The notes under the pieces: model-generated
Told to the model about the DNA's origin: nothing
The model's input: only the letters and a program-made list of their open reading frames with translations
Database searches by the model: none
Assembly: GCA_963810945.1 (NCBI GenBank)
Contig: CAWEPI010000014.1
Coordinates: 174,308-238,307, forward strand
Direction of reading: 5' to 3'
DNA: 64,000 nt
Source of the DNA: an uncultured Actinomycetes bacterium
Lineage (GTDB): Bacteria > Actinomycetota > UBA4738 > HRBIN12
Position numbers and translations under genes: made by a program
In this document: positions 12,381-31,053 of the stretch, one piece after another
Layout of the letters: every line of letters starts with the position of its first letter
Position numbering within the stretch: position 1 is the stretch's first letter

Positions 12381-12389
12381 GCCGACGGA

Positions 12390-13715: not shown

Positions 13716-13743
13716 GAGCGTGCTCCCTTCCCCCTCGTCCCGC

Positions 13744-15252
13744 TCAGCGGGAGATGCCCTGTCCGGATTGCGGTACCGCCGATGTCAGGTCCACCCAGAT
13801 CGACTTCGATTGGAGGTAGGGCTCGAGCGCCTCGGCGCCGAGCTCGCGCCCGAACCCCGAATGCTTGCGACCGCCGAAGGGGACGGCCACGTCGAACATG
13901 CCGTAGGTGTTGATCCAGACCGTGCCCGCCTGCAGGTCGTCGGCGAGGCGCAGCGCCTTGGCGGTGTCGCTCGACCAGATCCCGGCGGCCAACCCGAAGT
14001 CGACGCCGTTGGCGAGCCGGCGCAGCTCGTCCTCGTCCTCCCACGTGATCACGGAGAGCACGGGCCCGAAGATCTCCTCCTGTGCCACCCGCATGTCGTT
14101 GCGCACGCCCGCGATCACCGTGGGCTGCAAGAAGAATCCCTCCTCCAGTCCTTCGACGGATGCCTCCGAGCCACCGGCCGCGACCTCGGCGCCCTCCTCG
14201 GTGGCCGACGCGACGTAGCCGAGGACCCGGCGCCGGTGCGGCGCGGAGATCAGCGGTCCCATCTGGGTCTGCGGATCGAGGCCGTGGCCGAGCCGGAGCT
14301 GGTTCGCCTGCTCGGACAGGTGCCCCACGAGCTCGTCGGCGACGGGCTTCTCCACGAACAATCGCGAGCCCGCCACGCACGCCTGCCCCTGGTTGAAGAA
14401 CGCGCCGCCGAAGGCGCCGCTCGCGGCTGCCTCCAGGTTCGCATCGGCGAACACGATGTTGGGGCTCTTGCCGCCCAGCTCCAGGGTCACGCGCTTCAAC
14501 CCGTCGATCGACGCGCGCATGATCTCCTTGCCCGTGGCCGTCTGACCGGTGAAGGCGATCTTGCTGACGCCGGGGTGGCGCACGAGGGCCTCCCCCACGT
14601 CCGGCCCACCGATCACGACGTTCACGACGCCCGGCGGGAAGCCGGCCTCGTCGATCAGATCCATCAGACGCAGGGTGGAGAGCGGCGCCAACTCCGAGGG
14701 CTTCACCACCACCGTGCATCCGGCGGCGAGCGCCGGGCCGAGCTTGTACGCCACCTCGAGCAGCGGGAAGTTCCACGGCGTGATGGCCGCCACCACGCCT
14801 ACGGGCTCGCGCTTGCCGAGGGTGAGCATCCCCGGGATCGAGTTGGGCAGGACGTCGCCGGTCAGCTTGGTGGTCCAGCCCGCGTAGTAGCGGAACAGCT
14901 CGATCGTGAGCGCGACGTCGACGGCCTCCGCCTCCCACATCGGCTTGCCGTTGTCGAGGACTTCGATCGTCGCGAACTCGTCCTTGTTGGCCTCCAGGAG
15001 GTCCGCGAGGCCCCACAACAGACGCGCGCGCTGCGTCGGCGGAACCGAGCGCCACGTCTCGAACGCACGGCCGGCGGCCTCCACGGCCGCGTCGACCTCG
15101 TGGCCGGTCGCGAGGGGCGCCAACGCGAGCGTCCGGCCGGTCGCCGGGTTGATCGAGGCGAGCGACCCCTCGGTCTCGACGTAGGCCCCGTCGATGTAGA
15201 GGCGCAGCGGCTTCTCGAGGAACGCGATCGTCGGTTCGGTGACGGTGGGCAT
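13744..15252 (-). CDS. NAD(P)-dependent aldehyde dehydrogenase
   Basis: ITPWNFP, KPSE, FTGQTATG, LELGGKSP, FNQGQAC, EEIFGP, PFGG. Confidence 0.93.
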   Translation of the reverse strand: MPTVTEPTIAFLEKPLRLYIDGAYVETEGSLASINPATGRTLALAPLATGHEVDAAVEAAGRAFETWRSVPPTQRARLLWGLADLLEANKDEFATIEVLDNGKPMWEAEAVDVALTIELFRYYAGWTTKLTGDVLPNSIPGMLTLGKREPVGVVAAITPWNFPLLEVAYKLGPALAAGCTVVVKPSELAPLSTLRLMDLIDEAGFPPGVVNVVIGGPDVGEALVRHPGVSKIAFTGQTATGKEIMRASIDGLKRVTLELGGKSPNIVFADANLEAAASGAFGGAFFNQGQACVAGSRLFVEKPVADELVGHLSEQANQLRLGHGLDPQTQMGPLISAPHRRRVLGYVASATEEGAEVAAGGSEASVEGLEEGFFLQPTVIAGVRNDMRVAQEEIFGPVLSVITWEDEDELRRLANGVDFGLAAGIWSSDTAKALRLADDLQAGTVWINTYGMFDVAVPFGGRKHSGFGRELGAEALEPYLQSKSIWVDLTSAVPQSGQGISR

Positions 15253-15282: not shown

Positions 15283-16308
15283 TCAGGCGATCTCGAGGAC
15301 CTGGCGACCGAGGACCCCGCGTTGACGCAGGGCCGCGAGCGCGTCGGAGACGCCGTCGAGGGGGAACGCGCCAGCGATCGGGACCGTCATGGCTCCGGCC
15401 GCGGAGAGCGCCATCGCGTCCTGCAGGTCCAGTCGGGTGGCCGCGACGGTGGAGATGAAGGAGGACTCCGGCAGGATGAACTCGATCGGGTGGATCTCGA
15501 GCTGTTGGTCCGTATACCCGGTCGAGACGAACCTCCCGCCCTTGGCGAGCGCACGGATGCCCGCCGCCATCGATCCGGTCGTCCCCACCAGCTCGAAGAA
15601 GACGTCGGTGCCGCGACCGTCGGTGAGCCCCCGCACGCCGCCGGCGAGGTCCTCGTACGCCTCCGGCGTCGGCACGAGGAGCCCGTCGCTCGCCCCGTGG
15701 TCGCGCGCGAGCTGCAGCTTCTCCTCCGCGTCGGCCACGGCGATCACGCGCGCTCCCGCATGCGCCGCCGCCTGCACCACGAGGATGCCGACGCCGCCGA
15801 TGCCGTCCACCACGGCGGTGTCGCCGATCCGCAGGTTCGACAGCTTCGTGGCGTGCATCGCGGTCATCCCGGCGCAGGTGAGCACCGCCGCGGTCGCGAA
15901 GTCCACGCCGTCGGGGATCGCGACCGCGTTCTGCTCGGGGATCACCACGTAGTCCGCGTCGCCGCCGTCGCGGTTGAAGCCCAGCTGGTCGGCCTCGTTG
16001 TCGCAGATGTTCTGGCGGCCCTTCAGGCACTGCTCGCAGTGCCCGCAGAAGATCTTGTTGTAGATCGCCACACGGTCGCCCGCACGCAAGCCCACGCCCT
16101 CACCCGCTGCTTCCACCACGCCCGCCGCCTCGTGGCCGAGCGTCATCGGGTAGGGGTCGGGCTTGATCATCCCGTCGAGGATGTGCAGGTCGGTGCCGCA
16201 GACGCCGGCGGCGTGGATGCGCACCAGCACCTCGCCCCTGCCCGGCTCGGGGGTATCGACGTCGTCGAGTCGAAGGGTGAGGTCCTCGTGGATCCGGGCT
16301 GCCTGCAT
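15283..16308 (-). CDS. Zn-dependent alcohol dehydrogenase
   Basis: GVCGTD, GHEAAG, CGHCEQC...C, DGIGGVG; AAGGAG SD before ATG 16308. Confidence 0.9.
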   Translation of the reverse strand: MQAARIHEDLTLRLDDVDTPEPGRGEVLVRIHAAGVCGTDLHILDGMIKPDPYPMTLGHEAAGVVEAAGEGVGLRAGDRVAIYNKIFCGHCEQCLKGRQNICDNEADQLGFNRDGGDADYVVIPEQNAVAIPDGVDFATAAVLTCAGMTAMHATKLSNLRIGDTAVVDGIGGVGILVVQAAAHAGARVIAVADAEEKLQLARDHGASDGLLVPTPEAYEDLAGGVRGLTDGRGTDVFFELVGTTGSMAAGIRALAKGGRFVSTGYTDQQLEIHPIEFILPESSFISTVAATRLDLQDAMALSAAGAMTVPIAGAFPLDGVSDALAALRQRGVLGRQVLEIA

Positions 16309-16321
16309 GTCTCGACGCTCC

Positions 16322-17020
16322 TTACCGCTCCGGGCGCGGTTCACCCCGGCTCGGGGCCCCGTACGCCATGTCCCAGAATGCCACCTCGTACTCCGTCGAA
16401 CGCTCGAAGATGGTCGCCAGGGTCGCCATCTGCGCGGCGTCGTGGACGTCGGCCACCCGGTCCAGCAGGGCCGTGGAATCCTCGACGAGGCGGTCGTACT
16501 CGTCGTTGCCGAACATCGCGATCCAGTCGGCGTAGATCGGGTCCTCCGGCGGATGCGCCATCAGGGGCCGCGCGAGCTCGCCGTAGCTCCACTGGCAGGG
16601 CAGGACCGCCGTGAGCCCCGCGGCGCAGTCCCCCTGTGCGCAGGTCGCGAGCAGATGCCGCGTGTACGCGTACGTGGTCGGGAGCATCGAGTCCTCCTCG
16701 CCGAGCGCCGCTTGATCGCCGCCGAGGCGCTCGAGGAAGGCCAGGTTCGCCGGGATCTCGTTGCGCACGATCTGGTCCAGGAACCGCGTGAGGGTCGCGA
16801 TCCCCTCGCGATCCGGAGCCTTCGCCACGATGATCGCGATCGCGCGGGCGTAGTCCTGCAGGTAGAGGACGTTCTGCTCGAAGTACCGACGGAAGGTCGC
16901 ATGCGGCAGCGAACCGTCCGCGATCGCCTCGACCATGGGATGACCGGTGGCGCGCTCCCACACACGCGCGCCGGACTCGTGGAGCACCCGAGAGACGTGC
17001 TCGGACCGAGTCTCCAACAT
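16322..17020 (-). CDS. tenA: TenA family thiaminase II / aminopyrimidine aminohydrolase, variant with Asn at the conserved Asp
   Basis: HPMV..IADGSL, FEQNVLYL (usually QD..YL), LPCQWSY catalytic Cys, YEVAFWDMAY; start uncertain. Confidence 0.85.
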   Translation of the reverse strand: MLETRSEHVSRVLHESGARVWERATGHPMVEAIADGSLPHATFRRYFEQNVLYLQDYARAIAIIVAKAPDREGIATLTRFLDQIVRNEIPANLAFLERLGGDQAALGEEDSMLPTTYAYTRHLLATCAQGDCAAGLTAVLPCQWSYGELARPLMAHPPEDPIYADWIAMFGNDEYDRLVEDSTALLDRVADVHDAAQMATLATIFERSTEYEVAFWDMAYGAPSRGEPRPER

Positions 17021-17027
17021 AATGCGC

Positions 17028-17057
17028 ACTACATCAGATACCAACGGAGGGCGTCAA
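17028..17057 (-). promoter_or_regulatory. Putative promoter of tenA-adh-aldh-deaminase unit with overlapping operator half-site
   Basis: Minus strand TTGACG-N18-TGTAGT; TATCTGAT (17033-17040) overlaps the spacer/-10 junction. Confidence 0.4.
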
Positions 17058-17779
17058 GCCGACGGCTCCTCGGTCGCTGAGGGGGCCTCGGCGGCCTCGA
17101 GCTGGTCGCCCAGGACGCTCCGGATGTGGGCACGCATCGCGCGTTCGGCCCCGTCCGCGTCGTGCGCCGCGATCGCGTCCACGATCGCGGCGTGCTCCTC
17201 CACGGAGGCCTTCACCCGACCGGGGATCTCCTCGGTGAGCCGCCCGATGCGCGCCAGGTGCGCCTTCAGGTTCTCGATCAGGGCCCGGATGCGTTCGTTG
17301 GCGACCTGGTCGTAGATCACGAGGTCGAAGGCCCCGAGGAGCACCGCGAGGCCCTCGAGGTCGTCCCTCGAGCGGAGCTCCCGGCTCTCGTTCACCAGGC
17401 TCTCCAGGTGGGCGACCATCTCCTGTGAGGCGGTGGCGGCGGCGGCGCGGACGGCGGCTCCCTCGAGGAGCTCGCGGAGCTCGTAGATCTCCTGCAGATC
17501 CTGGGACGAGTAGCCGCTCACGACCGCGCCCTTGAAGGAGGTGGTCTCGACGAGACCTTCCTGCTCCAGGCGCGCGAGCGCCTCGCGGACCGGGGTCTTG
17601 CTCACGCCGAGCTGCTCGGCCATCGTCGCTTCGCGCAAGGGTTCCCCGGGCTGCAGCCGGAGCTCGATGATGGCCTGACGGACCTCCTCGTAGACCCAGT
17701 CGGTCACCTTGCGCCGGTCGTGCCGCCCACTGAAGACCGCGCCCTCAGGCGCCTGCCCGGTCCCTATCCCGTTGCCCAC
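17054..17779 (-). CDS. GntR family (FCD) transcriptional regulator
   Basis: LQPGEPLRE..MAEQLGVSKTPVREALARLEQEGLV wHTH; FCD end EEHAAIVDAI...AMRAHI. Confidence 0.9.
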   Translation of the reverse strand: MGNGIGTGQAPEGAVFSGRHDRRKVTDWVYEEVRQAIIELRLQPGEPLREATMAEQLGVSKTPVREALARLEQEGLVETTSFKGAVVSGYSSQDLQEIYELRELLEGAAVRAAAATASQEMVAHLESLVNESRELRSRDDLEGLAVLLGAFDLVIYDQVANERIRALIENLKAHLARIGRLTEEIPGRVKASVEEHAAIVDAIAAHDADGAERAMRAHIRSVLGDQLEAAEAPSATEEPSA

Positions 17780-17801
17780 GACGACCCCTTCCAGCGAACG
17801 A

Positions 17802-18230
17802 TCATCCCGAGGGCTCGGCCGAAGCCGGCTCCACGAGCTCAACGAGCATCCCCCCGAACGACGACGGGTGAACGAACGCGATCCGCGTCCCCATCCCGCC
17901 CGCGCGGGCCTCTTCGTCGACCAGCCGCACACCCTCGCCGCGCAGGGACTCGAGCGCCGCGTCGATCCCGTCCACCTCGAACGCCACGTGGTGCAGCCCG
18001 GGCCCGCGCGTATCGAGGAACCGCTGGATCACGCCGTCGCCCGAGGCCTCGAGCGTCTGCACGAAGCCCTCGCCCACCGGGAACATCCGCTCGATGAACC
18101 CCGGTCCCGCCTCTTCGTGCGGCTCGACGTCGAGGACGCGGCAGAGCATGTCCTCGGGACCTGGGCCCGGTCCGTGCGCGAACGCCACGTGATGTACGCC
18201 CACGACGCGCCAGGTCCCCGAGCTCGTCAT
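17802..18230 (-). CDS. mce: Methylmalonyl-CoA epimerase-like VOC protein
   Basis: HHVAFA, IQRFLDTRGPGLHHVAFEVDGI, RIAFVHP...GGMLVELVE; adjacent to acyl-CoA mutase. Confidence 0.8.
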   Translation of the reverse strand: MTSSGTWRVVGVHHVAFAHGPGPGPEDMLCRVLDVEPHEEAGPGFIERMFPVGEGFVQTLEASGDGVIQRFLDTRGPGLHHVAFEVDGIDAALESLRGEGVRLVDEEARAGGMGTRIAFVHPSSFGGMLVELVEPASAEPSG

Positions 18231-18281
18231 CGCATCCCTATCCATCCGCCCGCCCGTCCCTCGTCCGGCTCGGGGTGCATT

Positions 18282-19328
18282 CTAGGGAATCTCGCGTTTC
18301 ATATGCGATGTCTCATCCCTCGGAGCCGGTCTGCGGCCGGTGAGCTCGGCGACACAGGTGGAGAACGCGCGCACGGTCTCCATGCGCCCCTCTCCCAATG
18401 GGAAGACGTTCACGGAATCCGCGCCGGCATCGATGACCGCCGCGATCCGCGCCCGCGCCTCGTCGGCGTTGCCGGCCAGTGCCACGCGACGGACGAAGTC
18501 GTCCGGGAGGAGGCGCGCGGCGGCCGCGGCCTCCTGGAACTCCCCGCCGGCGTAGCGTCGCTTGACCTCGTCGATGAGGGACGCCGGGAGCCCGGCGAGC
18601 TCGCAGATCACGGGGGCGGTCTGGGGGAACCAGGCGGCGATCGAACGCGCCGACGCGAGCGCCCGTTCCTCGTCGTCGTCGATCGCTCCGTAGGCGAAGA
18701 CGGCGATGCTCGGTCGATCCCGACCGACCTTCGAGGCACCCCGATCGACGTGCTCGAGGGCCCACGCGAGCGCGTCGGGGAAGAGCCCGACCAGCAGGAT
18801 CACGCCGTCGGCGATCTCCCCCGCCAGCTCGAGCGTGCGCGGGCCGCTCGCGGAGATGTACACGGGGATGTCGGGCCGGGCCGGGAAGCGCAGGTGCGCG
18901 TCGCGCATCGTGAACGCCGTGTCCTCGACGTCGACATGGGCTCCGCTCCACAGCGCACGGATCGCGCCGATCGAGGCGCGCAGCGAGTCGACCGACGCGG
19001 GCTTCATCCCGAGCGCCAACAGGGGCCGGTCGCCGGCGCCGATCCCCAGGATCATCCGGCCGCCCGAGATCTCGTCGACCGTGGCCGCCGAGGCGGCCGT
19101 GATGGCCGGGTGACGCGTGAGCGGGTTCGTCACCGCGGTGCCCAGCGTGAGCCGGGTTGAGCGCGTGGACGCGAGCGTGAGGTACGCGTAGGCGTTGCGG
19201 GCGTGCAGCGACGAGTCCGTGAGCCAGAGATGCTCGAAGCCCAACCCGTCGATCTCGGCCACCATCTCGCCGAAGCGCGGCGGCTCGTAGGCGCCCTGCA
19301 GGACGACCCCCGCACGGATCTGCCTCAT
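18282..19328 (-). CDS. LLM class oxidoreductase, Mer-like (probably F420-dependent)
   Basis: GFEHLWLTDS, LGTAVTNPLTRHP, ISGGRMILGIGAGD, VYISASGPRTLELAGEIADG. Confidence 0.85.
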   Translation of the reverse strand: MRQIRAGVVLQGAYEPPRFGEMVAEIDGLGFEHLWLTDSSLHARNAYAYLTLASTRSTRLTLGTAVTNPLTRHPAITAASAATVDEISGGRMILGIGAGDRPLLALGMKPASVDSLRASIGAIRALWSGAHVDVEDTAFTMRDAHLRFPARPDIPVYISASGPRTLELAGEIADGVILLVGLFPDALAWALEHVDRGASKVGRDRPSIAVFAYGAIDDDEERALASARSIAAWFPQTAPVICELAGLPASLIDEVKRRYAGGEFQEAAAAARLLPDDFVRRVALAGNADEARARIAAVIDAGADSVNVFPLGEGRMETVRAFSTCVAELTGRRPAPRDETSHMKREIP

Positions 19329-20428
19329 CGCGCGACCTCCTCGAACCTCGTCACGGTCGACGCGAGCACGGACAGGCCGTCGGCGATCGGCGCCATGTCG
19401 ATCCACTCTCCGGGGGTGTGCTCGCCGCCACCGGTGGTGACGCCCAGGGCGAGGGCGGGGATGCCGCGCGCGTGGGCGGCGTTGGCGTCCGTGCTGGTGG
19501 GGACGGCCACCGCAGGGATGCCGGCATCCTCCAACGCCGCCCTCGCCGCCGCCGCCAGCGGGTGGCCCGCGTCGAGGGCGCCGGCGGGACGTCGTCCGAG
19601 CTCCTCGATCTCGATGTCGACGCCCTCGGGCGCGTGCGCCGCGAGACGGGCGCGGGCCTCGGCCTCATGGCTCGCGAGCCTCCCGGGGTCGGAGGCACGG
19701 ATGTCCAGCTCGAACCAACACGAGCGGGCGCGGGCGTTGATCGCCTCGCCGCCCCCGATCCGGCCAACGTTCACCGTGGCGCCGACGTCGGCGTCGGCGA
19801 GCCGCGCGATGCCGCCGATCATGTCCGCGGCCACGTGGATCGCGCTCGGCGCCTCCGCTGCCTCCCAGGCGTGGCCACCCGGACCCGTGAGACGCACGCG
19901 CCATCGTAGCGACCCGACCCCCACGGTCGAGACCCGGCCCAGGTAGTTCCCCTCCACGGCGAGCACCGCGTCGATCGGCCCGCCGAAGCCCTCCAAGGCG
20001 CCCACGATCCCGCGGAGGTTCCCGAGACCCTCCTCGCCCACGGTGGCGACCAGCCACAGGGGCCGCCCACGTCGCGCGGCGAGCAGCGTCCCCACCGCCG
20101 AGAGCGCGGCGAGGGCCACGGCATCGTCGCCCACGCCCGGGCCCGATAGGCGTCCGTCCTGCTCGTGCACGACGTGAGGCACATCCGCGGTGAACACCGT
20201 GTCGAGGTGCGCCGCGAGGAGGATCGCCCCGCCATCGCCGGGCCGCACGCGAGCCCAGACGTTGCCCGTGGCGTCGAGCTCCACGCCGTCCCATCCATCC
20301 TCGCCCCACCAGGCGCCCACGAGCGCGGCGCGCGCGCCCTCGGCTCCGGTCGGGGCCGGAACCGAGGCGACCTCGACCGTGCGCGCCAGCACCTGGGAGG
20401 CGAGCGTCGCCGGCGTGGGAGCGCTCAT
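19325..20428 (-). CDS. M20/M25/M40 family metallohydrolase
   Basis: AHLDTVF, GVGDD, GEEGLG, GGHAW, STDAN, EHTPGE. Confidence 0.85.
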   Translation of the reverse strand: MSAPTPATLASQVLARTVEVASVPAPTGAEGARAALVGAWWGEDGWDGVELDATGNVWARVRPGDGGAILLAAHLDTVFTADVPHVVHEQDGRLSGPGVGDDAVALAALSAVGTLLAARRGRPLWLVATVGEEGLGNLRGIVGALEGFGGPIDAVLAVEGNYLGRVSTVGVGSLRWRVRLTGPGGHAWEAAEAPSAIHVAADMIGGIARLADADVGATVNVGRIGGGEAINARARSCWFELDIRASDPGRLASHEAEARARLAAHAPEGVDIEIEELGRRPAGALDAGHPLAAAARAALEDAGIPAVAVPTSTDANAAHARGIPALALGVTTGGGEHTPGEWIDMAPIADGLSVLASTVTRFEEVAR

Positions 20429-21625
20429 GGGGCGATCGCCAGCCCCGCCGCGACGAGCTCGTCGATCTCCCCGTCGCTCATCCCCACGCCCGCGAGGACC
20501 TCGCGGGTATCGGCGCCGAGCGACGGGGCGGGCCGCGGATACGGCAGCGGGTCACCGTCGATGCGGATGGGTGCGCCGACGATCCGGTACGCACCCGCCT
20601 CCGGTTGCGCGAGCGTCTGCACGGAGCCGAGCGCGGCCGGCTGGGGTCCGTCGAAGACCTGGGCCACGTCGCGCACCTCCGCGGCCGGCACGCCCTCGGC
20701 CGCGAAAGCGCCCAGCCACGCGACGCTCGTGCGGGAGCCGAGCACCGCCTCGAAGAGCGCCGTGAGCTCGTCGCGATGACGCACGCGCGCCGCGTTGTCC
20801 GAGAACCGCGGGTCCGACGGGAGCTCGTCGAGCCCCAGGACGCGGCAGCACCGCACCCATAGATCCTCGGAACCCGCCCCGGCCAGGACGATCCACCCGT
20901 CGGCGGTGCGGAAACCCCCGTACGGCGCGAACGTCGGGGAGTGCGTTCCGAGCAACCCCGGCACCTCACCCGAGACGAAGTAGCTCGCCGCCATCGTGCC
21001 CAGGCCCGCGAGGGCGAACTCGAGCAGCGACGAGGTCACGTGGCGTCCCTCGCCGGTCCCCAGCCGCTCCACGTGTGCGGCCAGCAGGCCCAGCGCGCAA
21101 CTGAGCCCGGCGCCCACATCGAGGACCGGTGCGCCCACCTTCACCGGCCCGGATCCGGGGCTCCCGGTGATGCTCATGACGCCGCTCTCGGCCTGCAGGA
21201 TCAGGTCGAAGCCGCCCCGGGGCGCGTCGGGGCCGACGTCCCCGTACCCGGAGATCGACCCGTACACCAGCGACGGGTGGCGGGCGTGCACCGACCGCCC
21301 AGTCGAGACCGTGGCGCGCGAGGCTCCCGGGCCGGGCGTTCTCCACCAGGAAGTCCGCGCTCCCCAGGAGGCGCTCGATCGCGGCGGCCGCCTCGGGCGC
21401 GCGCATGTCCAGGGCGACGCTCCGCTTCCCCGAGTTGAGCGACATGAACAGCACCGACTGACCACCTACGCGCTCGGTCCCCTGCGCGCGGTACGGGTCC
21501 CCGCCGGGGGGGACCTCGATCTTGATGACCTCGGCGCCCAGCGCGGCCAGCGTGGCCGTGGCCTGAGAGCCCGCGACGAAGCGCGTGAGGTCGAGGACCC
21601 GGAGCCCGGTGAGCGGCGCGCTCAC
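20425..21625 (-). pseudogene. CaiB/BaiF family CoA-transferase with one frameshift near 21296 (probably a sequencing error)
   Basis: VLDLTRFVAG...LGAEVIKIE...NSGKRSVALD...VENARPG in one frame, then SISGYG...GFDLILQAESG...APSLG in the next; GTGA/ATGA coupling at both ends. Confidence 0.85.
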
Positions 21626-23226
21626 CACGGGTCGGGCTCCCGGAACTCCCCGAAGACCCCGCGGAACACGTCGGTCATCTCGCCCACGGTCGCGCCGGCG
21701 CGGGCGGCCACGACCAGCGGCGGCATCACGTTGCCGCCGCTGCGCGCGACCTCGTCGAGCGCGGTGAGCGCCTCGGCGTGAGCCCGGGGATCGCGGGCGG
21801 CCACGCGCGCCGCGGTGCGCGCGATCTGCCGCTCGACGATGCCCTCGTCCAGCCGGAACGACGCGGGTGCCGGCGCATCCGCGCCGTGAGCGTCGGCATG
21901 GACGTTCACGCCGACCTTGGGGCGGATGCCCTGCGCGATCTCTCGTTCGGTGCGATACGCGGATTCCGCGATCCAACGCTGGGGCACGCCTCGCTCGATC
22001 GCCGCCACCGCGCCGCCCAGCCCTTCCACCTCTGCGAGCACGGCGCCGGCCGCCGCCTCGATGTCGTCGGTCAGGCGCTCCACGAAGTACGACCCGGCGA
22101 GCGGGTCCGCGGTGCGCGCCACGCCGGACTCGAGCCCGATGATCTGCTGGGTGCGCAGGGAGAGCGTCACCGCCTCTTCCGATGGGATCTCGTACGCCTC
22201 GTCGTAGCCCATCACGTGGATCGACTGCGCCCCGCCGAGGACGGCGCCGAGGCACTGCAGGGTCGAGCGCACGATGTTGTTGAGCGGCTGTTGGGCCGTG
22301 AGCGTCGTCCCGGAATTGCCGGAGAAGAAGCGGAGGCGCCCCGAGCGCGGGTCGGTGGCGCCGAATCGCTCCGTGGCGATCCTGAACCACATCCGCCGGG
22401 CCGCGCGGAGCTTCGCCACCTCCTCGAACAGATCGAGCGTGGTCGCGAAGTGGAACGAGAGCCGGGGGGCGAAGCCGTCGAAGTCCATCCCGCGCGCGAT
22501 CAGCGCCTCGGCGTACGCGATCGCGGAGGCCATCGTGAGCGCGAGCTCCTGCACGGCGTCGCATCCGGCCTCGCGAGCGTGGTAGCCCGTGATCGAGATG
22601 GGGTTGAACCGCGGCAGATGCTCGGTCGCGAACGCGATCACGTCGCACGACAGCCGCATGGACGGTCCGGGCGGGAAGATGAAGGTCTTGCGCGCGAGGA
22701 ACTCTTTGAGGATGTCGTTCTGCAGGGTGCCGGCGAGCCGCTCGTACCCGATGCCCTGACGCTCCGCCGCCACCAGATACGTGGCGAGGATGATGGGCGC
22801 GGTCGCGTTGATCGTGAAGTTCACGGAGACGTCGCCGAGCCCCAGCCCCTCGAAGAGGTCCACCATGTCCTCGGCCGTATCGATCGCGACGCCCACGCGG
22901 CCCACCTCCGCGCGGGCCCGCTCGTGGGAGGAGTCGTAGCCGAGCTGGGTCGGCAGGTCGAATGCGACCGAGAGCGCGGTCTGGCCTCGCTCGAGGAGGA
23001 ACCGGTAGCGGGCGTTCGTCTCCTCCGGTGACCCGAAGCCCGCGAACTGCCGCATCGTCCAGAGTTGCCCCCGGTACATGCTCGGATAGGGTCCCCGCGT
23101 GAACGGGGGCTCGCCGGGCAGGCCCAAGCGTCCCTCGAGCCCCTCCTCGACGTCGGTCGCCGTGTACACGGCTTCGACCGGCAATCCGGAGTCGGTGGTG
23201 ATCCGACCGCGCGGCTCCTCGTTCAA
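21622..23226 (-). CDS. B12-dependent acyl-CoA mutase, substrate-binding (large) subunit; divergent methylmalonyl/isobutyryl-CoA mutase family
   Basis: PGEPPFTRGPY, WTMRQFAGF, SVAFDLPTQLGYDS, QNDILKEFLAR, ISITGYH, EEVAKLRAARRMW, DPLAGSYFVE. Confidence 0.93.
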   Translation of the reverse strand: MNEEPRGRITTDSGLPVEAVYTATDVEEGLEGRLGLPGEPPFTRGPYPSMYRGQLWTMRQFAGFGSPEETNARYRFLLERGQTALSVAFDLPTQLGYDSSHERARAEVGRVGVAIDTAEDMVDLFEGLGLGDVSVNFTINATAPIILATYLVAAERQGIGYERLAGTLQNDILKEFLARKTFIFPPGPSMRLSCDVIAFATEHLPRFNPISITGYHAREAGCDAVQELALTMASAIAYAEALIARGMDFDGFAPRLSFHFATTLDLFEEVAKLRAARRMWFRIATERFGATDPRSGRLRFFSGNSGTTLTAQQPLNNIVRSTLQCLGAVLGGAQSIHVMGYDEAYEIPSEEAVTLSLRTQQIIGLESGVARTADPLAGSYFVERLTDDIEAAAGAVLAEVEGLGGAVAAIERGVPQRWIAESAYRTEREIAQGIRPKVGVNVHADAHGADAPAPASFRLDEGIVERQIARTAARVAARDPRAHAEALTALDEVARSGGNVMPPLVVAARAGATVGEMTDVFRGVFGEFREPDPW

Positions 23227-23630
23227 CGCACCTCCTGGGTCCGGGCGGCGAGGGCCAGCACGCCGTCGACCACCTCGAGGAGGTTGGTGCCGACCGGGAA
23301 GACCGCCGCCACGCCGAGCGCGCGCAACGCCTCGGCGTCGTCCGCGGGGATCGTCCCGCCCAGCACGACGGGGACGTCGTGGAGCCCGCGGGCCTCGCGT
23401 TCACGCAGGAGGTCAGCCGCAAGCTCGAGGTGGGCGCCCGAGAGCACGGAGATCCCGATCACGTCGGCGTCGTCGTCGGCCGCCGCCCGCACGATCTCCG
23501 CCACGCTGCGCCGCAGGCCGAGGTAGATCACCTCGGCGCCGGCGTCGCGCAGCGCCATCGCGATCACCTTGACGCCGCGGTCGTGCCCGTCCAGGCCCGG
23601 CTTGGCCAGGACGACCCGCGGCGGTCTCAC
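23223..23630 (-). CDS. Cobalamin-binding (small) subunit of acyl-CoA mutase
   Basis: KPGLDGHDRG (DxHxxG), SVLSGAH, LGGTIP. Confidence 0.93.
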   Translation of the reverse strand: MRPPRVVLAKPGLDGHDRGVKVIAMALRDAGAEVIYLGLRRSVAEIVRAAADDDADVIGISVLSGAHLELAADLLREREARGLHDVPVVLGGTIPADDAEALRALGVAAVFPVGTNLLEVVDGVLALAARTQEVR

Positions 23631-24592
23631 ACGAGCTCCCCCGCCACCATCACCGGGCGGCCATCGACCTCGAGCGTGGCGTCACGCATCACGCAATCGA
23701 GGTGCGCCACGGCATCCACGACCCCGCCGTAGGCGATGGAGTTCCCGAGTGCGATGTGCGCGGTGCCGCGTGCCGACTCCGTCTCCATCGCCACGCCGCA
23801 CACGCGCCCCGATGGGTTGAAGGCCATCGACACCTCGGCCACGTTGCGCATCCGTTCGTCTGCGCAGCGCGCGAGCATCTCCTCCAGCCGCCCCGCCTCC
23901 GCGCCGTCGAGGCCCACCATCTCACCGTCGGCGACGTGGATCGCGACCGGCTCGGGCAAGGGCCCCTGCCCCATGAACAGCAGATCCGCATCCACGATGA
24001 CCACGCCGGTCGTGGTCCCCTCCACCGGCGCCGTACCCGCCTCGATGTCCGGGGGCGCCATGTACGCGCCGTCCTCGCGCGCCAGGCCGTGCAGCACGCG
24101 CCCGGGGCGCCCTGCCACGGATCCGCTGAGGTCGGTGCCACCGGGCGTCGTGAGGTGGAACCGTTCGGCGTCGCCCCAGGCCCGCCCGATCCGCTCGGCG
24201 TCGGACCGGATCGCGTCGAAGTCGACCGTGAGCGGGCCGTCGTCGCGGAAGGTCTCGAGGCGCACGCCCGGCATCGCGAGGTACCGCACGCCGGCTCGCG
24301 TGGCGCGCTGCCGCGCCGCGCTCGAACCGATGAACAGGCTCGTGAGCTCGATCACCGCGCCGGCCTCGCGCATCATCGCCGCCACCGCGCTCGGCGGCTC
24401 CGAACCCGGGAGCAGCGGCACGGGCATGCGCGCGAGGACCGGGGTGGCGCCGCGCCGCGCGATGCCCTCCTCCAACCCGGCGACCACGGCGCCGTCGGTG
24501 CCCTCGTCCGTCAGCAGCACCACCTGCTCGCCCGCGCGCACCGCGAGGCAGCGATCCAGGAGGTTGTCGAAGCCCGCCTCCGCCGCGGTCAC
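23627..24592 (-). CDS. M29 / aminopeptidase T-like metallohydrolase (same fold family as NicX)
   Basis: TPGGTDL, PPDIEAGTAPVEG, NVAEVSMAFNP, E..RGTAHIALGNS..GG...HLD; GTG start 2 nt after upstream stop. Confidence 0.7.
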   Translation of the reverse strand: MTAAEAGFDNLLDRCLAVRAGEQVVLLTDEGTDGAVVAGLEEGIARRGATPVLARMPVPLLPGSEPPSAVAAMMREAGAVIELTSLFIGSSAARQRATRAGVRYLAMPGVRLETFRDDGPLTVDFDAIRSDAERIGRAWGDAERFHLTTPGGTDLSGSVAGRPGRVLHGLAREDGAYMAPPDIEAGTAPVEGTTTGVVIVDADLLFMGQGPLPEPVAIHVADGEMVGLDGAEAGRLEEMLARCADERMRNVAEVSMAFNPSGRVCGVAMETESARGTAHIALGNSIAYGGVVDAVAHLDCVMRDATLEVDGRPVMVAGELV

Positions 24593-24594
24593 CG

Positions 24595-25806
24595 CTACCC
24601 CGCGGCGGGCTCCGAGAGGGCGAGGGCGGCGAAGGCCGCGTAGACCTTGGTCGCCTCGTGGATCTCCTCGACCGTCAGATGCTCGTCGGGGCAGTACACG
24701 GGTGGCCCGCCGGGCCCGAAGATCACGGTCGGCACCTTCTCGCCGAAGCTGGCGGTGTCCCCCAACCAGTTCTCGACCCGCAGGCCAGGCTCGGTGCCGC
24801 GGACCTCGCGCACCGCCGTGCGCATCAGGCGCACGACCTCGTCCTCGGGATCCGCCAGGTACCCGCTCTTCACGTCGGCGAGCACGACCTCGGCGCGCAC
24901 ACGCGGGTCCGCCTCCTGGGCGCGCGCGAGGCATCGGTCGATCTCCGCGCGGACCTGCTCGATGCTCACGCCCGGCTGCGGACGGCAGTCGACGCGGATC
25001 ACGCACTCGTCCGGGATCATCGAAGGACCGCCGGGGGCCAGACCTCCGTAGATCCGGCCGGGCACCACGTAGGTCTCCGGACCGAACAGCTCGACGACCC
25101 AGGGCTCGAGCTGTGGCTCGTACTTCGACGCATCGAGCGCGAGCACGGCCTGGGCGGCCAGGACGTTCGCGTTGATCGCGACCGGCTTGTGACACGTGTG
25201 CGCGGAGCGACCGAGCGTGGTCACGTCGAAGTAGTAACGACCTCGGTGCCCGAGACAGACCTCGTTGTCGGTGAGCTCGCCCAGCACGCAGAGGTCTGCG
25301 TCGTGCTCGTCGAAGTAGGCGATGGACCCGAGCTGGTCGCCCATGTGATCGGAGACGGCCGCCATCGCGAGGGTGCCGGTGAGCGGCAGGCCGCTCGAGC
25401 GCACCCCCTCGATCGCCACGATCTGGCAGACGAGCGCGGCCTTCATATCCATGACACCGTGCCCGTACACGGACCCGTCGATCAGGGCGCCCGAGAACGG
25501 CTCGGTGACCTCCCATCCGTGGGAGACGGGCTTGGTGTCCATGTGTCCCGTCATCACGATGCGCCGCCCGGGCCCGAGGCGCACCTCGCCGATCGCGTTG
25601 GGCCGCTCAGGCAAGACGGGCTGCAGGGCGACCTCGTCGAACCCGGAGTCGCGCATGACCGACGCGAGGTACTCGGCGAGGGGGCCCTCGTCCCCGAGGA
25701 CGCTCGGGATCCGGCACACCTCTCGTACGAGCTCCACCGCCCGGTCGAGGTCGAGGCGCCCGAGCACCTGCTCCGTGACCTCGCTGGTTCCGGTGCCCAC
25801 GTCCAT
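24595..25806 (-). CDS. M20 ArgE/DapE-like deacylase (YlmB-like candidate)
   Basis: GHMDT, YGHGVMDMK, GRSAH, GDTASF, FGPG; the usual DEE reads DHM, so catalytic residues are altered. Confidence 0.85.
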   Translation of the reverse strand: MDVGTGTSEVTEQVLGRLDLDRAVELVREVCRIPSVLGDEGPLAEYLASVMRDSGFDEVALQPVLPERPNAIGEVRLGPGRRIVMTGHMDTKPVSHGWEVTEPFSGALIDGSVYGHGVMDMKAALVCQIVAIEGVRSSGLPLTGTLAMAAVSDHMGDQLGSIAYFDEHDADLCVLGELTDNEVCLGHRGRYYFDVTTLGRSAHTCHKPVAINANVLAAQAVLALDASKYEPQLEPWVVELFGPETYVVPGRIYGGLAPGGPSMIPDECVIRVDCRPQPGVSIEQVRAEIDRCLARAQEADPRVRAEVVLADVKSGYLADPEDEVVRLMRTAVREVRGTEPGLRVENWLGDTASFGEKVPTVIFGPGGPPVYCPDEHLTVEEIHEATKVYAAFAALALSEPAAG

Positions 25807-25921: not shown

Positions 25922-26989
25922 TCACGAACAGCTGTAGGGCATGTACTGATCGGTGGAGATCGCCGCCGCGTCGGGCGTCGACTTGATCAGACCGTTCGTC
26001 TTCATCCAGTCCCCGTAGCTCTGCCAAGCGGCGGAGTCGATGCAGCCCGTCTTCGTGCCGGCCGCCGGCTTCAGGAGCGTCAACGTGTACGGGACGCTCG
26101 CGTCGAGGAACTTGGCGTCGTACTGCGTGACGTCCTTCATGACGGCGGTGGCGCCTGCCGGATCGGCGATCGCCCCGTCCGTCCCCTTGATCAGGGCCGC
26201 CACGAAGCGCGTCACGGCGTCGGCGTACGCAGGGTCGCTCGACAGCTTGTCGGCGTTGGCGGCCACGATCAGCTCGGCGTAGTTCGGCACGCCCAACTCG
26301 TTGGCCGGGTACACGGTGGGCTTCTTGCCGGTCTCCTGCTCGACCTGGATGGCTTCCACGTTCTGGTACCCGCCGATGATGGCGTCGACCTTGTTCGACA
26401 GGAGCGACTGAACGAGGTTGAAGCCGACGTTGACCTTCGTGACGTCGCTCGCGCTCACGCCGGCCGTCGTCAGCATCGAGTTGTAGATGTCGTCGTCGCT
26501 CGGGAGGCCGGTGACCCCCACGGACTTCCCCGAGATCTGAGAGAGGTCGCTCATCGGGACGTCCGGAGAGACGATCAACGAGTTCAGCGGCACCGGGACG
26601 ACGGTCGCCACGGACATGACCGGCAGCCCGCTCTCCTGCCCGTAGAACATGCCGGACTCGTAGAAGATCGCGAGGTCGACCTTGTTCAGGCCGACGAGCT
26701 TGATCGGATCCGCGGCGGTCGCCGGGGCCTGGAAGCTCACCGTGAGGTTCTCGTCGGCGAAGTACCCCTTGTCCTGCGCGTAGTAGAGGCCCACGTGGTC
26801 CGGATTGGGCGTCCAGTCGAGCTCGACCTTCAGATCGGCCGGAGCGCTCGATGCCCCCGAGCCGCCCGCCGACGCGCTCGAGGACGAACCCCCGCTGTCG
26901 TTGCCGTTGCTGCACGCCGCGGCCACCAGCGCGAGGCACGTGAGCGCCGCGAGTACCGCGAGTTTCCGCTTGAGACCCGATCGGTCCAT
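25922..26989 (-). CDS. ABC transporter substrate-binding lipoprotein, NMT1/THI5 (ThiY-like)
   Basis: Lipobox VAAAC; LDWTPNPDHVGLYYAQDKGYF, VNVGFNL, GGYQNVE, GVPNYAEL. Confidence 0.88.
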   Translation of the reverse strand: MDRSGLKRKLAVLAALTCLALVAAACSNGNDSGGSSSSASAGGSGASSAPADLKVELDWTPNPDHVGLYYAQDKGYFADENLTVSFQAPATAADPIKLVGLNKVDLAIFYESGMFYGQESGLPVMSVATVVPVPLNSLIVSPDVPMSDLSQISGKSVGVTGLPSDDDIYNSMLTTAGVSASDVTKVNVGFNLVQSLLSNKVDAIIGGYQNVEAIQVEQETGKKPTVYPANELGVPNYAELIVAANADKLSSDPAYADAVTRFVAALIKGTDGAIADPAGATAVMKDVTQYDAKFLDASVPYTLTLLKPAAGTKTGCIDSAAWQSYGDWMKTNGLIKSTPDAAAISTDQYMPYSCS

Positions 26990-27065
26990 CTCGACCGTCC
27001 TTTCATCCGCCCGGCTCGTGGGGACCCACGCGCCTCCCTCCGATGGCACCGCGCCCTTGCGAGCC

Positions 27066-27914
27066 CTACATCGCATTCCCCCTCGGCGCCCAGGGGACGA
27101 GGATCCGCTCCAGCAGCGAGACCAGCGCGAACAACGCCATCGCGATCAGGGTGAGGATCAAGATCGCGGCGAAGATGCGCGCGGTCTGCAGGTTCGGCGT
27201 GGCCTGCAGCATCACGAACCCCAAGCCGGCGCTCGCGCCCGACCATTCCCCGAACACGGCCCCGATCGCGGCGAACGTCGCCGCGATCCGCATGCCCGAG
27301 AAGATCGCCGGCAGCGCGGCGGGGAACTCGATGCGCCGGAAGATCGCCCAGCGCCCCGCGTCGAGCGTCTTCATCATGTGGATGAAGTCGTCGTCGACCG
27401 AGCGGAGGCCGTCCAGGCCGTTCACGACGATGGGGAAGAAGCAGATGAGCGCGACGATCACCAGCTTCGGCAGGATCCCGTAGCCGAGCACGATGACGAG
27501 GATCGGCGCGAGCACGACGATCGGGATCGTCTGCGATCCGATCAGGAGCGGATACACCGCGCGACGGAGCGGCCCGAACATGTGCAGGACGATCGCGAGC
27601 CCCACGCCCGCCACCGCCGCGATCACGAAGCCGATCACGATCTCACGCAGGGAGACCCACATCGCCGGCGCGAGGATGCTCGACCAATCGTCGCGCAGCG
27701 CCACCGCCACCTGCGACGGCGCGGGGAAGAGGTACTTCGGGACGTGGAACCCGCGGATGATCGCCTCCCACAACGCGATCATGATCAGGGTGAACAGCGC
27801 CGCGAGCCCGTACGCGCGCCAGAGGCGCTTCAGGCGGCCCGGTTTGCGCACCGGCGTCACCTCGGCCGAGGGTGCCTCCTGCGCGGCCGGCTCCACCGGC
27901 ACCTTCGTGCTCAC
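27066..27914 (-). CDS. ABC transporter permease (ThiX/SsuC-like)
   Basis: FPAPSQV, QTIPIVVLAP, FFPIVVN..DGL, PAALPAIFSGMR, GAVFGEW. Confidence 0.9.
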   Translation of the reverse strand: MSTKVPVEPAAQEAPSAEVTPVRKPGRLKRLWRAYGLAALFTLIMIALWEAIIRGFHVPKYLFPAPSQVAVALRDDWSSILAPAMWVSLREIVIGFVIAAVAGVGLAIVLHMFGPLRRAVYPLLIGSQTIPIVVLAPILVIVLGYGILPKLVIVALICFFPIVVNGLDGLRSVDDDFIHMMKTLDAGRWAIFRRIEFPAALPAIFSGMRIAATFAAIGAVFGEWSGASAGLGFVMLQATPNLQTARIFAAILILTLIAMALFALVSLLERILVPWAPRGNAM

Positions 27915-28711
27915 TCGATGGCCTCCAGGGCCTGCTCCTTGAGCGCGACGAACGCGGGGCTCGTGACGATCTCGCGACGGGACTCGCCGGTGGTCTCGAG
28001 GTCTGTCTCCAAGACCTTCAGGACGCGTCCGGGACGCGCGGACATGACCACGACCGTCTTGCTCAACAAGATCGCCTCCTCGACGTCGTGGGTCACGAGG
28101 AGCACCGTCCGCGGAACATCGCCGAGGGCGCGCAGCAGCCATTCCTGCATCTGCGCGCGGGTGATCGAGTCCAGGGCGCCGAAGGGCTCGTCGAGCAGGA
28201 GGACGTCCTTCTCTGCCATGAGGGTCCGGAGGAAGCTCACGCGCTGACGCATGCCCCCGGAGAGCTGCGCGGGACGCACGCCCTCGAACTCGGCGAGACC
28301 GAAGTGCTCGAAGTAGGGGCGCGTCTTCTCGCGTGCCGCGTCGCGGGAGACGCCCCGGTTCTGCATCGCGATGATCGCGTTGTCGAGCGCGGTGCGCCAC
28401 GGGAGCAGGAGGTCGCGCTGCGGCATCATCGCGCAGCGCGCGAGCCGCCCCCGGGGATCGGTGGCCCCCTCGACGTTCACGACTCCGCTGTCGGGCTCGA
28501 GGAGACCCGCGCAGAGCTGGAGGAGGGTCGACTTGCCGCCACCGCTCGGACCCACGATGCCGATCCTGGAGTGCCGCTCGATCTCGAACGTCACGCCGTC
28601 GAGCGCCACCACCTCGCCGAAGGTCTTCCGGATCGCATGGAACGAGATGCCGACCGAGTCGTCCGCTGGGTTCGGCGCGGCCGCCGCGTCACGCACTGCA
28701 CCCTGCCCCAA
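27911..28711 (-). CDS. ABC transporter ATP-binding protein (ThiZ/SsuB-like)
   Basis: GPSGGGKST, LSGGMRQR, LLLDEPFGALD, VTHD. Confidence 0.92.
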   Translation of the reverse strand: MGQGAVRDAAAAPNPADDSVGISFHAIRKTFGEVVALDGVTFEIERHSRIGIVGPSGGGKSTLLQLCAGLLEPDSGVVNVEGATDPRGRLARCAMMPQRDLLLPWRTALDNAIIAMQNRGVSRDAAREKTRPYFEHFGLAEFEGVRPAQLSGGMRQRVSFLRTLMAEKDVLLLDEPFGALDSITRAQMQEWLLRALGDVPRTVLLVTHDVEEAILLSKTVVVMSARPGRVLKVLETDLETTGESRREIVTSPAFVALKEQALEAIE

Positions 28712-28818: not shown

Positions 28819-29520
28819 TCACGCGGGCTGCAGATCCGGCCACTGTTCCATCGTGTACGCCATCTCCCAGAACCCCCGCTCGAGCCGGGAGCTGGTGGCG
28901 AAGATCTCGCCGAGCTCGGCGCGCTTGGCCGACCCCACGCCTTCCTCCGAGGCGAGGCGATCGAAGTCGCGCCGCATCGCTGCCACCATCTCCACGTTCA
29001 CGGGAAGCGTGAAGTAGCCGATCCAATCCGCGTACACCTCGTGCTGCGACGTCGCCTTCGCCGCTAGGCGCTGGGCGATCTCCACGTAGCTCCACGCGCA
29101 CGGCAAGAGCGCCGCCATGATCTCGAGCGGCCCGCCGCGCAACGCGAGCGCCTGCAGGTAACTGGTGTAGGCCACGTTCGCCGGGGCCATCGTGGCGGCG
29201 CCACCCCGGTCGGCCGCCCCCATCTCGGTCACGCGCGCGAGCAGCGCGCGGTTGCTCGGCAGCTCGGCATCGATCACCTGGTTCAGGTCGACCATGAAGT
29301 ACCGGAGCTCGGTTTCGTCGCGCGACTTCGCGGCGCCCATCGCGAGGCAGCGCGCGTAGTCCACGAGGTAGAAGTTGTCCTGTTCCAGGAAGAAGCGGAA
29401 CTTCTCGAGCGCCAGGGTGCCCGACGCGAGCTCGCGGAGGAACGGATGCGCGTGCAGCCCGTCCCAGATGCCCGCGCTCGCGACGCGCATCTCGTCACAG
29501 ATCGATGCGTCGGTGCCCAT
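28819..29520 (-). CDS. tenA: TenA family thiaminase II (canonical Asp/Cys/Glu type)
   Basis: HPFLREL..GTL, FLEQDNFYL, LLPCAWSY, LERGFWEMAY. Confidence 0.9.
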   Translation of the reverse strand: MGTDASICDEMRVASAGIWDGLHAHPFLRELASGTLALEKFRFFLEQDNFYLVDYARCLAMGAAKSRDETELRYFMVDLNQVIDAELPSNRALLARVTEMGAADRGGAATMAPANVAYTSYLQALALRGGPLEIMAALLPCAWSYVEIAQRLAAKATSQHEVYADWIGYFTLPVNVEMVAAMRRDFDRLASEEGVGSAKRAELGEIFATSSRLERGFWEMAYTMEQWPDLQPA

Positions 29521-30295: not shown

Positions 30296-30339
30296 GGCCC
30301 CGACCTTAACCCCGCTCCTGTGTCACGGACGGGAGCCCT

Positions 30340-31035: not shown

Positions 31036-31053
31036 GTGGAGGCCCCTGCGCGA

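Follow-up and report, generated by a model that had tools for sequence, protein, structure and literature searches.

Acyl-CoA mutases that depend on adenosylcobalamin (AdoCbl) have been described for several substrates, and each of the newly assigned specificities (for ethylmalonyl-, 2-hydroxyisobutyryl- and pivalyl-CoA) has opened a new pathway and provided a tool for carbon-skeleton engineering. In this family the acyl group enters through the inside of the barrel. Methylmalonyl-CoA mutase (MCM) binds the methylmalonyl carboxylate with Tyr89 and Arg207. Isobutyryl-CoA mutase (ICM), which occurs as IcmA/IcmB and as IcmF (4xc6), carries Phe and Gln at these positions. In 2-hydroxyisobutyryl-CoA mutase (HCM; HcmA/HcmB from Aquincola tertiaricarbonis, 4r3u) functional roles are attributed to Ile, Gln and Asp117, residues which we have read from the 4r3u alignment. 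Ethylmalonyl-CoA mutase (ECM; Ecm/MeaA), which serves the ethylmalonyl-CoA pathway, consists of one fused chain and is not known to belong to a hydrolase-rich catabolic operon. Here we describe a mutase encoded on a stretch of 64,000 nucleotides from an uncultured Actinomycetes bacterium (assembly GCA_963810945.1, contig CAWEPI010000014.1, positions 174,308 to 238,307), which is referred to as the window. On balance, we regard it as an active two-subunit AdoCbl mutase of an uncharacterised clade, with a new specificity for a carboxylated ester of the 2-substituted malonyl-CoA type, which would act in a catabolic operon for a nitrogen heterocycle.

The two subunits are encoded by adjacent genes:

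23223..23630, minus strand: mutase small subunit, B12-binding domain, 135 aa (PF02310, TIGR00640, motif DGHDRG)
21622..23226, minus strand: mutase large subunit, TIM-barrel substrate domain, 534 aa (PF01642, TIGR00641)

The start and stop codons of the two genes overlap. Translation of the large subunit starts with TTG and that of the small subunit with GTG, which itself overlaps the stop codon of the preceding gene. The large subunit matches the complete PF01642 profile (639 bits, profile positions 1-512 of 512; Pfam) and exceeds the cut-off of TIGR00641 by far (642.8 bits, cut-off 303.8; NCBIfam). Equivalent results were obtained for the small subunit with PF02310 (96.7 bits) and TIGR00640 (140.9 bits, cut-off 57.45), and its DGHDRG represents DxHxxG, the motif for His-on binding of B12 in the superfamily. 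The two subunits have the domains and catalytic residues of AdoCbl-dependent acyl-CoA mutases. A structure prediction, one of the checks named in a preliminary description of this DNA, resulted in a mutase fold: the AlphaFold 2 (AF2) model of the large subunit has a predicted local distance difference test (pLDDT) score of 95.6 and superimposes on HCM (4r3u) with a TM-score of 0.97.

Among solved structures, HCM is the closest not only by fold but also by sequence (498 bits, 46% identity). Both enzymes are split into a large (~540-560 aa) and a small (~135 aa) subunit, and they have GYH, HxxxxDE and Gln197 in common. However, HCM has Ile at the Tyr89 position (RQIAGF), Gln at the Arg207 position, FHCQT and HTN, where the window mutase has F61, R179, FFSGN and HVM. 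The residue aligned to Asp117 is A88, so that none of the three HCM residues is found, and the gene contexts differ as well. Solved MCM structures (P. shermanii 1req/4req, human 2xiq, M. tuberculosis 6oxc) are slightly more distant (41-43% identity, TM-score 0.94-0.95), and IcmF is the least similar (33-34% identity). The mutase shares with the ICM family the Phe at the Tyr89 position and the split-subunit form, which also exists there. In contrast, ICM has Gln at the Arg207 position and keeps HxQT and HTN, as is seen in an ICM-type paralogue from the same genome. The MCM equivalog model NF006944 gave 554 bits against a cut-off of 876, but this model spans the fused form of 721 aa. No equivalog model in NCBIfam covers the clade described here or ECM.

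Active-site residues were paired by phmmer alignment to the solved structures. Numbering was counted along the rows of P. shermanii (chain index +1) and anchored on 5req, the Y89F mutant, which has F at that place. The motifs RQFAGF, QNDILKEFLAR, FFSGNSG and HVMGYDEA, reported in the preliminary description, are all found in the translation of the large subunit, and the positions given there were borne out by the structure-based pairing. The pocket residues are F61, Q169, R179, Y215-H216, H259, F301-S-G303-N304, H337-V338-M339 and D342-E343. F61 corresponds to Tyr89, and R179, the Arg of ..EFLAR, to Arg207, so that the Tyr89/Arg207 pair of MCM is found only in part. Y215-H216 are equivalent to Tyr243-His244 and D342-E343 to Asp369-Glu370. 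Thus the His of GYH and the Glu of DEA, described as kept together with DxHxxG, are the equivalents of His244 and Glu370. F300-F301-S302-G303-N304 aligns with Thr327-His328-Ser329-Gln330-Thr331 (THSQT in MCM, FHCQT in HCM), and H337-V338-M339 with His364-Thr365-Asn366 (HVMGY as opposed to HTNSL and HTNGY in the solved structures). It had been considered that FFSGNSG might represent a loss of His244, but the alignment count rules this out, as that residue is the H of GYH.

Five residues of MCM are consequently replaced (His328, Gln330, Thr331, Thr365, Asn366). They include the His/Gln and Asn near the cofactor which had been reported as lost. Four of them (His328, Gln330, Thr365, Asn366) are identical in every solved MCM and HCM that was aligned and in both further mutase paralogues encoded in the same genome.

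The replacements are a stable feature of a clade. In a scan of species-representative genomes, 257 stretches were found to encode a relative, and the clade is thus widespread. Of these, 80 loci (66-96% identity) were kept for comparison. Nearly all are from uncultured Actinomycetota (metagenome-assembled genomes labelled Streptosporangiaceae, Acidimicrobiia, and sponge-associated lineages) from soil, sponge and freshwater, and the identity range extends across named orders and classes of this phylum. One of the 80 carriers is cultured, Nocardioides caldifontis, and this opens the question to experiment. In addition, a word-indexed database search scored 8000 candidates at E <= 1e-20, the best 120 of which are 74-99% identical to the window mutase. 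The names under which these best 120 are recorded are all generic, for instance 'methylmalonyl-CoA mutase family protein' or 'N-terminal domain'.

HVMG[YF]DE occurs in 120 of 121 sequences (the window mutase and the best 120 candidates) and S[IV]HVMG[YF]DE in all 80 loci. RFFSG[NCS][SA]G is found in 78 loci, while the remaining two were not matched by the pattern used. Because these patterns recur in 78 and 80 of the 80 loci, the FFSGN and HVM substitutions cannot, as judged from the alignments, be due to chance. Their conservation in orthologues, on which the preliminary description had made its claim depend, holds down to 66% identity.

For a position-wise analysis, a clade set (n=195) was assembled from 74 locus proteins of more than 500 aa, the 120 database homologues and the window mutase; these sets may overlap. 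It was compared with 42 canonical-type representatives, which had been picked for HxQT and HTN. Twelve positions are fixed at 94-100% in the clade and differ in the canonical set: A84, N136, F137, T213, H259, F301, G303, C325, A333, I336, V338 and M339. For 301, 303, 338 and 339, complete conservation in the canonical set is by construction, and we rely on the alignments with solved structures and paralogues instead; the other eight are independent of the way this set was picked. Ten of the twelve are on or beside barrel strands 2, 3, 5, 6, 7 and 8 of the AF2 model and thus within the barrel. Strands 7 and 8 no longer carry polar residues (His, Gln, Thr, Asn) at these positions, and strands 3 and 6 have acquired such residues (Asn136, His259). 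In the model, the pocket thus appears to be re-polarised rather than merely widened. The equivalents of Gln197, Arg207, Tyr243, His244, His364, Asp369 and Glu370, on the other hand, are each kept in 195 of 195 sequences. This includes the Arg at the position where ICM has Gln.

The combination "Phe + Arg", which had been proposed as the signature of a new subfamily, does not hold, because position 61 is Phe in 54 and Tyr in 25 of the 80 loci (one unmatched). The real signature consists of the twelve other positions. Tyr is found in 23 of the 74 locus proteins above 500 aa. Tyr forms carry Cys304 and branch first in the tree, while Phe forms carry Asn304. Since the Tyr-bearing lineages branch first, Phe is a derived state within the clade. 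Residues 61/304 occur in the combinations F/N (167), Y/C (23), F/C (3), F/S (1) and Y/N (1) in the set of 195. The pattern resembles compensation, but we did not use this covariation as evidence for a contact, as the tree allows for a single ancestral double change.

A tree of 145 sequences over 533 columns was computed with FastTree and midpoint-rooted. It contains the window mutase, 14 locus proteins, two paralogues from the same genome, and 128 of 150 listed representatives at 50% identity (those with at least 480 aa; shorter ones were left out). Named reference enzymes are not part of this tree, in which the clade (support 1.0) is placed outside the MCM-, ICM- and HCM-type groups. It has P0135 and P0126 as sisters (0.965), followed by P0160, P0162 and P0155 (0.944), all of them with non-canonical pockets and away from these three groups. 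In P0126, the B12 domain is fused to the mutase at the N-terminus.

A grouping inside the MCMs, which would have contradicted the preliminary description, is thus not seen. Its new subfamily that fits no known class stands with respect to the separate clade and the conserved pocket, but the clade is not unique. The search retrieved 21281 representatives at E <= 0.001, and many of the 150 listed (P0125-P0274) are non-canonical at His328/Gln330 and Thr365/Asn366, yet keep Tyr89, Arg207 and GYH. By its sequence, the clade is one of many divergent unstudied branches rather than a lone oddity, and the MM_CoA_mutase family seems to comprise pocket types by the dozen that have not been studied. Almost all of the non-canonical branches among those 150 of the 21281 representatives are annotated as 'methylmalonyl-CoA mutase', which represents a large annotation blind spot.

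The same genome of 3.6 Mb encodes two further PF01642 genes. One is MCM-type (RQYAGM, ..KEYAARG, HTQT, HTN) and the other is ICM-type (RQFAGF, ..KEYIAQK, HTQT, HTN). A third mutase is therefore not needed for these two reactions. The only MeaB of the genome adjoins the ICM-type paralogue. In agreement with the preliminary description, the mutase cluster is devoid of MeaB, which was found neither in the window nor in a single one of the 80 related loci. The genome further codes for an adenosyltransferase and an F420 ligase. The match of the cob(I)alamin adenosyltransferase (PF01923; G000:C4:1004030-1004534) is split over two overlapping frames, which is probably due to an indel error in the assembly, and other apparent frameshifts in this genome are therefore to be read with care.

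The mutase genes are embedded in a series of genes on the same strand. The order within the operon is M20 hydrolase, NicX/M29-like protein, mutase, dicarboxylate-type CoA-transferase, M20 hydrolase, F420 reductase and epimerase-like protein. This operon, which is conserved in actinobacteria from soil and marine habitats, is flanked by genes for thiaminase II, alcohol dehydrogenase (ADH), aldehyde dehydrogenase (ALDH), deaminase-type amidohydrolases and a ThiY-like importer. The genes for the NicX-like protein, the small and large mutase subunits, the CoA-transferase and the second M20 hydrolase are chained by overlaps of their start and stop codons. Neighbours were counted in those 52 of the 80 loci which have both 10-kb flanks, requiring at least 40% identity over at least half of the query length; the counts depend on these thresholds. 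The mutase small subunit is present in 52 of 52 of these loci, and in 77 of the 80. The other genes are listed with their coordinates in the window and their counts:

28819..29520, minus strand: thiaminase II (TenA), copy 2 (TIGR04306, 153.6 bits, cut-off 130); 14 of 52
27066..28711, minus strand: ABC permease (27066-27941) and ATPase (27911-28711) of the ThiY-like importer; ATPase in 14 of 52
25922..27076, minus strand: NMT1/ThiY-like substrate-binding protein of the ABC importer (PF09084); 11 of 52
24595..25806, minus strand: M20 (ArgE/DapE-type) deacylase upstream of the mutase, ArgE/DapE-like by family and structure matches; 52 of 52
23627..24610, minus strand: NicX/peptidase-M29-like protein, 327 aa, assigned by a weak PDB match and by atlas clusters; 35 of 52
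20425..21625, minus strand: family III (CaiB/Frc-type) CoA-transferase, its start overlapping the mutase stop codon; 52 of 52
19325..20428, minus strand: second M20 hydrolase, its ATG overlapping the CoA-transferase stop codon; 41 of 52
18282..19406, minus strand: luciferase-like F420-dependent oxidoreductase (LLM family, Mer-like), true start probably downstream of 19406; 51 of 52
17802..18245, minus strand: VOC-family protein resembling methylmalonyl-CoA epimerase (PF13669, TIGR03081); 23 of 52, and 37 of all 80 loci
17054..17932, minus strand: GntR/FCD regulator, true start probably further in, as the domains begin at residue 80; 27 of 52
16322..17044, minus strand: thiaminase II (TenA), copy 1 (TIGR04306, 140 bits, cut-off 130; PDB matches to thiaminase II/TenA); 31 of 52
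15283..16344, minus strand: Zn-dependent alcohol dehydrogenase; 29 of 52
13744..15252, minus strand: aldehyde dehydrogenase, best models non-acylating (betaine-aldehyde and aminobutyraldehyde dehydrogenases), all below their cut-offs; 29 of 52
12390..13784, minus strand: amidohydrolase B of the deaminase/chlorohydrolase type (TRZ/ATZ, SsnA, MTA-deaminase); 42 of 52
10803..12389, minus strand: amidohydrolase A, same superfamily branch as amidohydrolase B; 12 of 52

In the window, the frame of the CoA-transferase gene is split by one extra base at 21297. The break was first placed near this position by comparison with a near relative (locus L003), which has indels of its own later in the same gene. 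The base is left out by every covering contig in four of four public sequencing runs (two DNA and two RNA libraries). The frame break therefore stems from an error in the assembly, and the gene itself is intact and not a pseudogene. Contigs from the two RNA libraries, which are soil metatranscriptomes, cover parts of the stretch with 92-99% likeness. We did not count this as expression, because DNA can be present in libraries of this kind and relatives may be the origin of the contigs. Between 22848 and 22991, a region that includes RQFAGF, the summed contig depth rises about tenfold in all four runs. This is probably a pile-up of mutase contigs from other organisms, and the depth over the large-subunit gene is therefore uninformative on abundance.

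The intact CoA-transferase orthologue from an Acidimicrobiia locus (L038) has succinate-hydroxymethylglutarate CoA-transferase as its best match (244 bits), and the C-terminal part of the window protein is nearest to succinate-glutarate, oxalate and mesaconate transferases (NCBIfam). The LLM protein is nearest to the F420-dependent methylene-tetrahydromethanopterin reductase (1z69, E 2.4e-43), and the second M20 hydrolase to a poly(aspartic acid) hydrolase (7ljh, E 1.7e-39). Both amidohydrolases belong to the branch of MTA/SAH deaminase, TRZ/ATZ, SsnA and 8-oxoguanine deaminase. The best PDB match of the ThiY-like protein is 3ix1, which binds N-formyl-4-amino-5-aminomethyl-2-methylpyrimidine (FAMP; E 8.9e-33). 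The NicX-like protein has no match in Pfam or NCBIfam. It shows a weak PDB match to the 2,5-dihydroxypyridine dioxygenase NicX (E 4e-5), and atlas clusters that match it carry PF26233 and PF02073 (score 0.97). A longer open reading frame of 629 aa at this place (23627-25516, minus strand) was rejected as an artefact of high G+C content, because it begins with a wrong-frame read-through over the M20 gene, rich in Arg, Pro and Gly, and only the last 327 codons are real.

Gene content, gene coupling, conservation and membership of the clade are shown by the data above, whereas catalytic activity, the substrate class and all pathway steps are inferred. Activity is expected from an otherwise ordinary radical machinery. 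B12 would be bound His-on via DxHxxG, and Gln197, Tyr243-His244 and Glu370 would serve as in other family members. The ester is likely to be made by the translationally coupled family III CoA-transferase, and the epimerase-like protein, where present, may set the configuration at C2. The invariant Arg207 (195/195) fits a carboxylated substrate. Taken together with a CoA-transferase of the dicarboxylate type and an epimerase that would act on a thioester acidic at C2, it points to an ester of the 2-substituted malonyl-CoA type, and the remodelling of strands 3, 6, 7 and 8 suggests that this ester bears a substituent missing from methylmalonyl-CoA. Hydrolases, deaminase and reductase accompany the mutase, which suggests that the acid derives from a reduced and opened nitrogen ring. 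The mutase reaction could then be the last carbon-skeleton step of the operon, after amidohydrolase, F420-dependent reductase and M20 deacylases have deaminated, reduced, opened and deacylated the ring. The same logic is known from ECM and the ethylmalonyl-/methylmalonyl-CoA epimerase, where a 2-substituted malonyl-CoA is paired with an epimerase and with a mutase that tolerates a substituent at the carbon to which the migrating group moves.

The set of TenA, ADH, ALDH and ThiY-like protein suggests that the ring is the pyrimidine of thiamine. For this pyrimidine, a salvage pathway with ThiXYZ, YlmB and TenA is known from Bacillus halodurans. As in that module, a ThiY-like protein, an ABC importer, an M20 deacylase and thiaminase II are found together in the window. 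Unlike the module, the window adds ADH, ALDH, deaminase-type amidohydrolases, F420 reductase, CoA-transferase and B12 mutase, and there is no thiamine pyrophosphate (TPP) riboswitch; an Rfam search of the window detected neither this nor any other RNA. The gene set thus looks like one for breakdown rather than salvage.

In such a pathway, the feedstock could be FAMP, HMP (4-amino-5-hydroxymethyl-2-methylpyrimidine) or the corresponding pyrimidine carboxylic acid (PCA). M20 deacylase and TenA would convert FAMP or the aminopyrimidine to HMP, which ADH and ALDH would take to the aldehyde and then to PCA. Deamination, reduction with F420H2, ring opening and deacylation would lead to 2-(aminomethyl)malonate or an N-acyl (e.g. 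N-acetyl) form, from which the CoA-transferase would form the CoA ester. The B12 mutase would finally move the thioester carbon onto the amino-bearing carbon, giving the aspartyl-CoA skeleton and, in the end, aspartate, an end product which fits the likeness of the second M20 hydrolase to an aspartyl-peptide hydrolase. That 2-(aminomethyl)malonyl-CoA or its N-acyl form is converted in this way during thiamine-pyrimidine breakdown is a tentative proposal, with perhaps one chance in four or five. It is similarly doubtful whether the clade as a whole can be named aminomethylmalonyl-CoA mutase, or a variant thereof that converts the CoA ester of a 5-carboxy-dihydropyrimidine to a dihydroorotate-like 6-carboxy compound.

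Several points weigh against the proposed reading. About 40% of the full-flank loci lack TenA, ADH and ALDH within 10 kb and about 80% lack the ThiY-like importer, so that the link to thiamine is not universal. No ring-opening enzyme of the dihydropyrimidinase type was identified in the cluster, both amidohydrolases being deaminase-type. Free aminomethylmalonate might decarboxylate without an enzyme, which would make the mutase unnecessary. The epimerase-like protein scores below the cut-off of TIGR03081 (88.5 bits, cut-off 114.95). Furthermore, the cavity close to the adenosyl ribose and to the carbon receiving the migrating group is lined in MCM by His328, Gln330 and Asn366. Should these residues touch the adenosyl group rather than the substrate, their replacement could be a matter of cofactor handling instead of specificity.

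The last point would suit an MCM dedicated to the operon, with pocket changes that are neutral or adapt cofactor handling to the lack of MeaB in the window and the 80 loci. Free methylmalonate would be loaded from succinyl-CoA, the epimerase would set the R form, and succinyl-CoA would be returned. CoA-transferase, epimerase and mutase are indeed exactly the set needed to convert methylmalonate to succinate, the CoA-transferase is nearest to succinyl-CoA-dependent dicarboxylate transferases, and an ALDH of the non-acylating type could make the free acid. The clade is also MCM-like in its invariant Arg207 and in the Tyr89 present in about a third of its members, including the first-branching lineages, where both residues thus occur together. 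However, Phe is found at the Tyr89 position in most clade members, and the Y89F mutant of P. shermanii MCM is said to be strongly impaired. In addition, His328, Gln330, Thr365 and Asn366 are all replaced together with eight further conserved positions, the clade is placed outside the MCM-type groups, and the genome already has an MCM-type enzyme. We consider a dedicated MCM to be unlikely. Judged from these residues, most likely the mutase does not act on methylmalonyl-CoA, and its substrate is probably new.

A substituent without an amino group would explain the evidence for a carboxylated, epimerisable ester equally well. The substrate might be hydroxymethylmalonyl-CoA, which would yield malyl-CoA, or an alkylmalonyl-CoA as in ECM, and the operon would degrade something other than the thiamine pyrimidine. 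The loci without TenA, ADH and ALDH within 10 kb (21 to 23 of 52 for each) are in accordance with this. But the invariant neighbours are enzymes of nitrogen chemistry (M20 deacylases and a deaminase-type amidohydrolase), the extra genes, where present, code for thiaminase II and a ThiY-like binding protein, and the second M20 hydrolase resembles an aspartyl-peptide hydrolase. We thus see a non-amino substrate as improbable, slightly more so than the dedicated MCM. A catalytically dead or regulatory paralogue, as might be suspected from the loss of residues invariant in characterised mutases and from the distance to any MeaB, is very hard to reconcile with the data: the residues examined for radical chemistry and B12 binding are kept in 195 of 195 sequences, 66-96% identity is maintained across named orders and classes of the phylum, translational coupling ties the gene into a catabolic operon, and the replaced positions are themselves 94-100% conserved. 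We therefore prefer an active mutase for a carboxylated 2-substituted malonyl-CoA-type ester. Its fold and cofactor are ordinary, but its specificity is very probably new and the pathway possibly so.

A full-text search of open-access papers and preprints, a scope beyond which most subscription journals lie, yielded no paper on this mutase clade, none on a mutase for aminomethylmalonyl- or hydroxymethylmalonyl-CoA, and none on a catabolic pathway for HMP or PCA at the gene level. Among the matching passages of these sources, 'aspartyl-CoA' refers to enzyme-bound intermediates of CoA-transferases only. PMC11223231 describes PCA as a microbially formed degradation product of thiamin with an unknown metabolic fate. 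If the thiamine-pyrimidine route applies, it would settle the fate of PCA and HMP, which is relevant to the cycling of vitamin B1 between microbes, and would provide a further way to make aspartate from a pyrimidine, dependent on F420 and B12. With either substrate, aminomethylmalonyl-CoA or the dihydropyrimidine ester, the mutase would catalyse a reaction new to this enzyme family, and catabolism of the pyrimidine of vitamin B1 would have its first route at the gene level.

In the Acidimicrobiia locus L038, a gene for a rhodanese-domain protein is located between ADH and the upstream M20 gene, and a carboxyltransferase-domain gene is found ~4 kb downstream of the epimerase-like gene (L038:6544-7404, L038:18724-20280). 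Beyond the cluster, the window region 29627-34554 codes for a DUF1345 protein, a protein of 205 aa without a family match and a patatin-like phospholipase, followed by a plus-strand gene whose product has an adenylate/guanylate cyclase domain. Among the related loci, the first three of these genes are shared with L003 only.

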